The position numbers and the translations under genes were made by a program. Below the pieces are notes generated by a model, which worked only from the letters and a program-made list of their open reading frames with translations, was not told the origin of the DNA and searched no databases. This document shows positions 13,294 to 14,405 of a DNA stretch of 14,698 nucleotides, piece after piece (positions within the stretch are counted from its first letter, which is position 1; each line of letters begins with the position of its first letter). This DNA is from a virus: UHGV virus genome UHGV-0229026, one strand, 5' to 3'.

Positions 13294-13349
13294 GCTAACT
13301 TTTTGTGGTATTCAGAAATATATTAACCGACACAAAAGGAAAGCAGACC

Positions 13350-14405
13350 TTGAATATTATAAAACTCGAAAGTTTTCGACAAATTCCGGCGAATGAGGGA
13401 TTGTGCGAGAACTATTATTCAACAAATATTATTTCAGCACTGAACGAAAACGGTGTCACGCTTATCAATGATATGTCCGGTTCTGTAACATCCGTCTGTC
13501 GTGGCACTCAGGCCGTAAATACTGTAGAAAGAACGGGGCTGATTTTCACGACATCCTCATATGTCACACTGTACAGCACACTTCCGGACTTAAAAGCCTC
13601 AGCTGTACAGCTGGGATTTCGTCTGACATTAAGTGCGGGAAAGAAATATTCATCTTCGCCATCCCACATCAGGATTAATGGCTATTCATTTACAACCCCG
13701 TATCCTGATGAAGCAGCCAGTTATTACTATGAAATTTTCGCAACGCGAAACGAAAACGGCTATGTCTCAGCCAGTCTGTACTGCAACCGCTCATTAGTTG
13801 GAAATACATCGTTTTATGTACCAGATGACCGGACTGACAAAATTCAGGTGAGTATTGGTAGTGGTGACAATATTTTTTCATCGGGTGCATCCGGCACGTT
13901 AATGCTGGGTGATATGTACTGTGGAACAGTGACATACGGTAGAAATAATAGTGCAGAACCCGCCCTGCTCGGAAGCATTGAGGTCAGATACAGCCCGGTA
14001 ACGGCATTTACCGGTGGAAGCGCCAAAAACTCACTGAATAAAGATATTGTCACGGGGCTGAACACCTCTGACAGCGAGGCCGGATATCTGATGCTCTCGC
14101 CGTCCCTGAATGCAGCACAGGCCACGTTTGGTGCGGTGGATAACGTCAACAGTGATGTTGTGGCCGTTATGGCCTCGGTCACTTACCGCGGTGCTGATGC
14201 CCCCAATAACCGCCTGGCCTGGAAAGTGAAAAATGGCAGCCATGAAGGTGCAACGATTACAGAGAATGGCGTACAAAGTGACACAAACAGCTGGACGACT
14301 GTCTCACAGAGTTTTATGACTCAACCAGGAGGGGGTACTCCCTTCGCTAAGGGAGAGCTGATTTTTACAGCTGAGCTGCATAACATAACAAGAAATATAG
14401 CCTGA
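13350..14405 (+). CDS. Hypothetical protein of unknown function; low-G+C orphan gene downstream of the tail fiber module (candidate moron / accessory gene)
   Basis: Long ORF open from GTG 13305 to TGA 14405; start called at TTG 13350 because AAGGAAAG (13336-13343) lies 6 nt upstream, while GTG 13305 has no SD. About 351 aa, rich in Ser/Thr/Gly/Asn/Tyr, no N-terminal signal-peptide-like segment or recognisable catalytic motif. Much lower G+C than the tail genes. Confidence 0.6.
   Translation: MNIIKLESFRQIPANEGLCENYYSTNIISALNENGVTLINDMSGSVTSVCRGTQAVNTVERTGLIFTTSSYVTLYSTLPDLKASAVQLGFRLTLSAGKKYSSSPSHIRINGYSFTTPYPDEAASYYYEIFATRNENGYVSASLYCNRSLVGNTSFYVPDDRTDKIQVSIGSGDNIFSSGASGTLMLGDMYCGTVTYGRNNSAEPALLGSIEVRYSPVTAFTGGSAKNSLNKDIVTGLNTSDSEAGYLMLSPSLNAAQATFGAVDNVNSDVVAVMASVTYRGADAPNNRLAWKVKNGSHEGATITENGVQSDTNSWTTVSQSFMTQPGGGTPFAKGELIFTAELHNITRNIA

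Follow-up and report, generated by a model that had tools for sequence, protein, structure and literature searches.

A putative lectin-like adhesin gene is linked to a repeat extension of the gp48 baseplate wedge and of other tail proteins in enterobacterial prophages

UHGV virus genome UHGV-0229026 (14,698 nt at its full length, referred to here as the window) comprises the late (tail) region and the right end of a Mu-like transposable Escherichia coli prophage. Near its right end lies a gene, named ORFX here (13350-14405, + strand), which an original prediction made from the sequence alone had put forward as an orphan and as candidate anti-phage or superinfection-exclusion cargo, with a second receptor-binding protein as the fallback. 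It is the fallback that linkage, predicted fold and genomic context favor: in the reading we prefer, to which we assign a probability of roughly 0.6, the ORFX product is a lectin-like adhesin, encoded by a gene of its own, which docks on a repeat module and serves as a second receptor-binding device. The broader claim that ORFX is a component of the tail or host-range module is one we make with high confidence. No new defense system is revealed, though the defense idea had prompted the flag.

ORFX and the phrog_8291 family

The mechanically called open reading frame (ORF) in 13294-14405 runs intact on the + strand from a GTG at 13305 to 14405. An opening of the form MNII.LE.FRQIP is common to 24 of 24 aligned homologues, and the start of ORFX was therefore placed at TTG 13350, giving a product of 351 aa. 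A Shine-Dalgarno sequence (AAAGGA, 13334-13339) is situated ~9 nt 5' of this codon, and the combination of a TTG start with a good Shine-Dalgarno sequence is kept in all homologues examined (the window and loci L002, L003, L005, L016, L021, L033, L038 and L039). The gene of ~350 aa that had been predicted behind the tail fiber assembly (Tfa) gene was thereby confirmed as an intact ORF, as was the character of its product: Ser, Thr, Gly, Asn and Tyr make up 43.9% of the residues, and no hydrophobic N-terminus, signal-peptide-like or transmembrane-like segment was found in ORFX (maximum 19-aa Kyte-Doolittle value 0.98).

Orphan status, on the other hand, did not hold. ORFX matched the phrog_8291 profile over its full length (E = 3.4e-239, residues 1-348 aligned to positions 1-348 of the 349 in the profile); this was its sole PHROG match, and the family is annotated in PHROGs as function unknown. 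At the cluster level 27 homologues were recovered at 41-97% identity; nearly all are E. coli proteins, with additions from Raoultella and E. albertii. Of 5426 complete E. coli genomes, 63 contain the gene, and when 1.84 billion representatives were searched exhaustively with a profile, only 17 matched. The phrog_8291 family is small and was encountered in enterobacterial prophages alone. No family was found for ORFX in Pfam (E ≤ 0.1) or NCBIfam, its profile gave chance-level matches only against PDB sequences, and a literature search found nothing specific on phrog_8291, its RefSeq proteins, or YmfQ or side-fiber adhesins.

The ratio of nonsynonymous to synonymous substitution rates (dN/dS) was 0.16-0.38 when ORFX was compared with six homologues; ORFX is therefore under purifying selection and encodes a functional protein. 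The gene is also mosaic. Its N-terminal half is near-identical to the alleles of L002 and L004 (dS 0.013) while dS reaches 0.16-0.25 in the C-terminal part, and for the L005 allele the corresponding values are 0.10 and 0.82. The sharp change falls near the boundary of the two beta-rich regions of the protein (see below) and indicates recent recombination inside ORFX. Mosaics with a diverged C-terminal part are a common pattern in receptor-binding genes.

A repeat module precedes ORFX on unrelated carrier proteins

The proposed partner of ORFX in the window is a C-terminal extension of the baseplate wedge protein. The gp48/YmfQ-type wedge core (10954-11520, + strand; residues 1-189 of the 318-aa ORF 10954-11910) was identified by matches to Pfam Phage_Mu_Gp48 (PF10076, E = 5.7e-30, residues 9-187) and to phrog_203, 'baseplate wedge subunit', and the Baseplate_J (gp47) gene is directly upstream. 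The core is followed by a repeat module (11521-11910, + strand) of seven 17-20-aa repeats at residues 197-318, in which PLTIN, PLLIN, PLTVN, PMTIN or PLVVN is followed by three residues and Q/H-x-Q/F, and which ends in ...PLVVNHNGLHFAVITEP. This PLxIN module, a 129-aa extension beyond the PF10076 model, has no Pfam or PHROG family, gave chance-level matches only against PDB sequences and had no match in 50,697 phage genomes. Searching a protein database with only the repeat module also returned nothing, likely because the search needed exact shared 5-residue words and because the window-type gp48 is annotated as a pseudogene.

The window genes or gene parts for gp47, the gp48 core, the gp48 extension, the fiber, Tfa and ORFX were mapped onto 33 related loci (IMG/VR, E. 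albertii and RefSeq E. coli), and later onto more. In every complete related locus mapped outside the window arrangement, the ORFX homologue begins 22-30 nt after the stop codon of a repeat-ending protein, with L040 retaining just a degenerate form of the repeats. These carriers end in 2-8 repeats of 17-20 aa with the form (E/G)P-L/V-x-I/V-N-x3-L/F-Q-x-G, the last of which reads PLxxN(H/R)xGLxFAV, and are otherwise unrelated to one another. Some are Mu gp48-type wedge proteins, in Mu-like (com/mom-bearing), dusA-integrating and tRNA-Ser-integrating prophages; others are lambda Stf-like fibers (phage_tail_N plus Phage_fiber_2), in lambdoid (J-Lom-Stf), P2-like and Raoultella myovirus prophages; a third, P2-H-like type is a fiber with Phage_tail_fib, the N-terminal domain of tail-collar fibers. 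The linkage between carrier and ORFX is kept down to 42-53% identity in the lambdoid, P2-like and Raoultella prophages. Because one repeat module together with ORFX is found on different carriers, repeats and ORFX act as one portable unit grafted onto virion anchors.

The linkage also holds in the reverse direction. A degenerate DNA motif encoding the terminal repeat (PL..NH.GLHFAV) was scanned against IMG/VR and occurred in 19 contigs, of which 18 contain ORFX and one is cut off at the motif. In most relatives the ORFX homologue is located inside the tail module, between gp48 and the fiber, and in a related Mu-like prophage com and mom come after the fiber module while the ORFX homologue is upstream of the fiber. 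The Mu-like order predicted for the upstream genes of the window was correct, but the position of ORFX outside the conserved tail order is peculiar to the window phage type.

Intact carriers are obscured by their annotation. RefSeq/PGAP lists repeat carriers as pseudogenes ('YmfQ family protein / prophage tail fiber N-terminal domain, incomplete, missing C-terminus'); the ORFs are intact (window 10954-11910, L004 8018-8977, L038 5230-6447), and the unmodeled repeat extension seems to trigger the label. In Raoultella planticola (L044/L045, 4025-4990), a complete Stf-like carrier with five PLVIN repeats directly upstream of ORFX is uncalled in the source annotation.

A gene directly downstream of a fiber or carrier gene can also be read in another way, namely that ORFX is a non-virion assembly factor, a chaperone that folds, oligomerizes or transiently caps the repeat module and is then released. 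Many Tfa, gp38 (T4) and DUF4376 proteins are released after assembly. With Stf-like carriers, ORFX stands where a Tfa or DUF4376 gene would normally be; no independent folding is predicted for the gp48 repeat module; and the strict linkage of ORFX to the repeats fits a chaperone as well as an adhesin. The evidence that speaks against this explanation comes from ORFX itself and is given with its predicted fold.

Repeat extension and ORFX vary together in one baseplate backbone

Variation around the window locus was assessed in a set of 59 E. coli genomes that share the region 7600-11500 at 91-99.9% identity. The gp48 repeat extension was present in 7 of the 59; the genomes that have the window-type ORFX allele are the same seven. 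Extension and ORFX co-occur despite the 1.4 kb that separates them in the window phage type, where the second device is split, with the repeats on gp48 and ORFX after Tfa. A more distant relative, whose gp48 is 92% identical and carries the extension, shows the same split order of fiber, Tfa and ORFX.

Three other genomes of the backbone set were inspected, and all have a gp48 of 190 aa and no ORFX. Sister prophages with short gp48 have, at the same position, a fiber equal in length to that of the window, which is a short conventional tail fiber of 267 aa (11957-12760, + strand; Pfam Phage_fiber_2, E = 5.8e-19; phrog_1833 tail fiber, E = 3e-100). After the fiber and Tfa genes, the inspected sisters carry either a 567- or 759-aa Stf-like second fiber, a 'prophage tail fiber N-terminal domain' protein, with a DUF4376 chaperone or, in E2348/69, an inverted pair of fiber C-terminus and Tfa. 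The slot after Tfa is therefore variable, as had been anticipated, and the three sisters fill it with alternative fibers and chaperones, not with defense genes. What varies in the slot among the inspected relatives is the second adsorption device. The sister cassettes share with the window the slot and a backbone that is 91-97% identical and can be regarded as functional equivalents; they differ in being single-polypeptide fibers with their own chaperones, combined with a short gp48, whereas the window device is split over the gp48 extension and ORFX.

Extensions of this kind are rare on the wedge protein. Among the 120 gp48/YmfQ homologues listed, nearly all are ~180-210 aa long and end at the core; the repeat extension is confined to two close relatives, and one further long protein, of 462 aa, bears an unrelated extension. 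The latter, P0086 (a YmfQ family protein of Limnobaculum xujianqingii), has a non-repeat C-terminal extension of ~270 aa, and wedge-protein extensions may be a more general route to baseplate-borne binding domains.

A possible trace of how the split arose is found directly 3' of the gp48 stop codon. The octamer ACAAAAGG at 11911-11918 (+ strand) recurs at 13332-13339, just before ORFX, and it resembles the carrier-ORFX spacer of the canonical loci: in both L002 and L004, CATAAAATAAAAGGAGAG and TTG come next after the carrier stop, in that order. The copy at 11911-11918 is likely a remnant of the ORFX ribosome-binding region and a scar of the rearrangement, and a canonical cassette of repeat module and ORFX may have been split by, or rearranged around, the block of fiber and Tfa.

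In E. coli E2348/69 (L035, NC_011601.1 2749191-2751433), the inverted Tfa' and fiber C-terminus' follow the fiber/Tfa pair, as in the G segment of Mu. L035 has no annotated gin-type invertase before the prophage end, and the inverted pair may be a frozen invertible segment.

Predicted fold and structural analogues of ORFX

AlphaFold 2, run with a 25-sequence family alignment, modeled ORFX as an all-beta protein with high internal confidence (predicted local distance difference test (pLDDT) score 89.8, predicted template-modeling (TM) score 0.88). The model contains two beta-rich regions (~1-200 and 215-347) with a predicted concanavalin A (ConA)-type lectin beta-jelly-roll. Foldseek comparison with predicted viral structures gave best whole-chain matches (TM-score 0.6-0.66, E 1e-15 to 1e-11) to uncharacterized proteins of Achromobacter, Serratia, Providencia and Cronobacter phages. 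The top whole-chain match was a 352-aa 'virion structural protein' of Achromobacter phage AchV4 (TM-score 0.65-0.66, E = 2e-15), which by length and name is AchV4_0026. This protein was detected in AchV4 virions by liquid chromatography-tandem mass spectrometry (LC-MS/MS), and its gene is located in the distal tail cluster, two genes after the putative tail fiber gene. Homology of ORFX to a conserved tail-fiber distal domain and its presence in virions had been named in the original prediction as what would make it structural; the evidence obtained is indirect and runs through this fold analogue found in virions by mass spectrometry.

Foldseek also returned legume lectins, tandem CBM22 modules and the receptor-binding domains of botulinum toxins. 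The predicted jelly roll is the fold of the ConA-like lectin/glucanase superfamily (legume lectins, CBM22, PL7/PL14/PL36 lyases and the N-domain of botulinum Hc), although ORFX is only 6-13% identical to its members and has no family-level sequence match. This fold would be compatible with a virion-attached glycan-degrading enzyme, a jelly-roll polysaccharide lyase or glycosidase on the baseplate that cuts capsule, O-antigen or colanic acid. Similarity to the PL7, PL14 and PL36 lyases is confined to the fold (7-11% identity), however, and no sequence match to a CAZy-type Pfam family or a PDB chain was found. PL7-type catalytic sites use His; the invariant positions of the ORFX family alignment include Q87, R91, K99, Y125, Y126, E128, D188, Y190 and Y196, and no His is invariant. 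An enzymatic role for ORFX is considered improbable.

The size and fold of ORFX also bear on its possible role as a chaperone. With 351 aa and two beta-sandwich regions, ORFX is about twice as large as the local chaperones (171-223 aa). It has no Caudo_TAP or DUF4376 match (Pfam, E ≤ 0.1), whereas the neighboring Tfa chaperone (172 aa; 12775-13293, + strand) matches Caudo_TAP (PF02413) at E = 4.6e-19 and phrog_136 at E = 2e-53. The lectin-like fold and the virion-protein analogue suggest a function on the particle, and the mosaic structure with a faster-diverging C-terminal part suggests host-driven selection. We therefore regard a purely chaperoning, released ORFX as unlikely, while noting that Mu/P2-type Tfa proteins can stay on the fiber tip and that the roles of chaperone and adhesin are not exclusive.

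Base composition and the defense hypothesis

The gene had been described as foreign in composition on the basis of two 60-bp samples. Both values were reproduced (36.7% G+C in ORFX and 55.0% in the sheath gene), but the conclusion was not: over the whole gene, ORFX has 46.5% G+C (45% at third codon positions) against 56.7% for 1-11400, and the drop starts at ~11400-11520 inside gp48, ~1.9 kb upstream of ORFX. The gp48 C-terminal extension (44.4%), the fiber (49.5%) and Tfa (45.7%) all share it. Low G+C characterizes the host-range module in its entirety, not ORFX alone, and in most other prophages sampled the ORFX homologues and adjoining fiber genes are ~4-13 G+C points below the upstream tail genes. 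E. coli itself has ~51% G+C, which places the backbone as far from the host average as the low-G+C module.

Composition was one of several features that suggested a moron, that is, cargo acting in the lysogen as anti-phage defense or superinfection exclusion. In the window phage type, ORFX closes the gene order at the prophage end, comes behind the hairpin at the Tfa stop, has a G+C content below that of the backbone and occupies a slot that is variable among sister prophages. Against this, no PADLOC-DB family was found for ORFX even at E ≤ 1, a scan revealed no promoter-like site just upstream of it, and it is on the same strand as the late tail operon. Its homologue in most lineages is situated between gp48 and the fiber, 22-30 nt after the gp48 stop; ORFX co-varies with the extension of structural gp48; and the alternatives in the slot of the inspected sisters are tail fibers. 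The predicted fold is lectin-like with an analogue among virion proteins, and ORFX has neither signal peptide nor transmembrane segment, of which many exclusion proteins have one or the other. Together, this makes defense cargo very improbable.

Lysogenic conversion by an O-antigen modification enzyme was considered as well and dropped; ORFX has no transmembrane segment or signal peptide, and such an enzyme is not expected to track the extension of a structural protein.

Proposed mode of action

In the preferred reading, ORFX and the repeats are the two halves of one cassette: the proximal half is the repeat module on a virion anchor (here gp48) and the distal half is ORFX. The repeat module would project from each of the six baseplate wedges. 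ORFX, translated from its weak TTG late in infection, would then dock on the repeats, probably via its conserved N-terminal half, and the conserved weak start may set a low stoichiometry of ORFX relative to the carrier. Once docked, it would present lectin-type beta-sandwiches that bind a surface glycan (lipopolysaccharide, O-antigen or capsule). The outcome would be a second adsorption device beside the conventional fiber and Tfa.

Several observations weigh against this model. From gene position alone, ORFX could equally be a chaperone. ORFX alleles with near-identical N-terminal halves pair with repeat modules that are only 39-47% identical, and docking, if any, must therefore use generic repeat features. 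The most divergent ORFX (41% identity; L040) follows a complete-looking 257-aa fiber and a 64-aa ORF with degenerate repeats only. The AlphaFold 2 model of full-length gp48 was uninformative (pLDDT 48, and ~32 in the repeats). ConA-like jelly rolls are common, and the likeness to AchV4_0026 is one of fold only, as comparison of the ORFX family with that protein by hhalign gave a probability of 0.2%. Finally, ORFX had no match by tblastn in 50,697 deposited phage genomes, which leaves no cultured relative of the cassette; megablast with the backbone against the same genomes likewise gave no match.

The L040 locus (4002-6357, E. coli OU349849.1) represents a different cassette architecture. Its 257-aa Stf-like protein has its own C-terminal domain, the two degenerate repeats of the 64-aa ORF read PLVIKHAVVSVG... 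and LPVLTGRTWLTYLIQN, and an 88-aa ORF follows ORFX.

A more far-reaching version of the adhesin reading is advanced only tentatively, and we consider it rather doubtful as it stands: the PLxIN module and ORFX may constitute an undescribed plug-and-play receptor-binding system, in which a generic docking stalk, built on monomeric gp48 or on trimeric side-fiber shafts in myovirus and siphovirus prophages, accepts interchangeable lectin or lyase alleles. If true, it would amount to a baseplate-anchored second adsorption device unlike any described fiber or tailspike.

Comparison with known receptor-binding systems

The closest functional parallel appears to be gp38 of T2-, S16- and PP01-type phages. 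In gp38 systems, a fiber protein with a docking end is combined with a separate, specificity-setting adhesin whose gene is immediately downstream. Like gp38 on gp37 in phages of the T2, T6, S16 and PP01 type, ORFX homologues are encoded directly downstream of the carrier gene (22-30 nt), with the fiber and Tfa genes in between in the window type. ORFX differs in having no sequence similarity to any tail-fiber or adhesin PHROG or Pfam family, and in its predicted lectin-type beta-sandwiches, as opposed to the glycine-rich-motif fold of gp38. Its proposed partner is a module of 17-20-aa repeats, which is borne by a wedge protein too and not solely by a trimeric fiber. By analogy, ORFX may work like gp38 without being a member of that family. 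In PP01, the protein that binds the receptor at the tip of the fiber is reported to be gp38 (PMC12892980).

The fiber and chaperone pairs gpS/gpU of Mu, gpH/gpG of P2 and Stf/Tfa of lambda share with ORFX the neighborhood that follows the baseplate genes gp47/gp48 (or J/I). Such pairs are host-range cassettes, exchangeable and lower in G+C than the backbone, and one of this type is present in the window (11957-13293). ORFX, in contrast, matches neither the fiber nor the Caudo_TAP/DUF4376 families, comes in addition to such a pair, and has as its partner a gp48 extension or a truncated fiber shaft ending in repeats.

Among the structural analogues, AchV4_0026 of phage vB_AchrS_AchV4, with its fold relatives in Serratia phage JS26, Providencia phage Kokobel1 and Cronobacter phage JC01, offers the best whole-chain fold and a similar length. 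It is 13% identical to ORFX, the AchV4 fiber lacks PLxIN repeats, the phage is a siphovirus of another family, and AchV4_0026 is likewise uncharacterized.

Systems of this kind, in which an exchangeable host-range cassette combines a fiber or anchor with a tip adhesin from its own gene, are known. Apparently undescribed are the phrog_8291 protein family, the repeat docking module and the use of the gp48 wedge as an anchor. If the reading is true, phrog_8291 gains a role, as does an unannotated repeat domain that annotation mistakes for damage ('missing C-terminus'), and a short C-terminal graft would turn a baseplate wedge protein into a receptor-binding scaffold. The unit of graft and adhesin occurs in Mu-like, P2-like and lambdoid E. 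coli prophages and bears on host-range prediction for temperate coliphages and tailocins; if the reading holds, it would also offer a compact, possibly portable module for phage retargeting.

Window layout and the prophage right end

The genes of the window are arranged in the order sheath, tube, tape measure, DNA-circularization protein, gp44-gp47, gp48/YmfQ wedge, 267-aa fiber, Tfa and ORFX. No RNA family was recognized when the full window was scanned against Rfam. An A/T-rich hairpin (CCACAAAAA...TTTTTGTGG; 13278-13309, + strand) spans the Tfa stop codon, with an RNAfold energy of -10 kcal/mol for 13270-13320, and is possibly a weak attenuator between Tfa and ORFX. A hairpin between Tfa and the next 'second device' gene was found in all three phage types (the window; L034, ~11270-11300; L039, ~10360-10400). 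The window hairpin is rich in A/T, whereas those of L034 and L036 are rich in G+C and resemble terminators, and these junction hairpins suggest attenuated read-through into the slot gene.

The prophage boundary was placed by comparison with strain 54214, in which the same prophage adjoins carB and identity with the window ends exactly at 14512; E. coli RIVM_C036569 and JNE21-009 are further lysogens of this prophage. This boundary leaves 107 nt between ORFX, the last gene, and the prophage end. The remaining bases (14513-14698, 29.6% G+C) are host chromosomal flank, which ~1650 E. coli genomes contain without the prophage, from window base 14513 onward. The prophage right end itself (14406-14512, + strand) contains a 21-nt direct repeat, GTGCGCAAATCAsCCCAGAATT (14455-14495), with an inverted copy AATTCTGGGC (~14436-14446), and terminates in ...GAAGTTACA, with TTACA as its last bases. 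As RNA, the region 14436-14512 folds to -38 kcal/mol. Judged by their arrangement, the right-end repeats are plausible transposase-binding (attR) sites.

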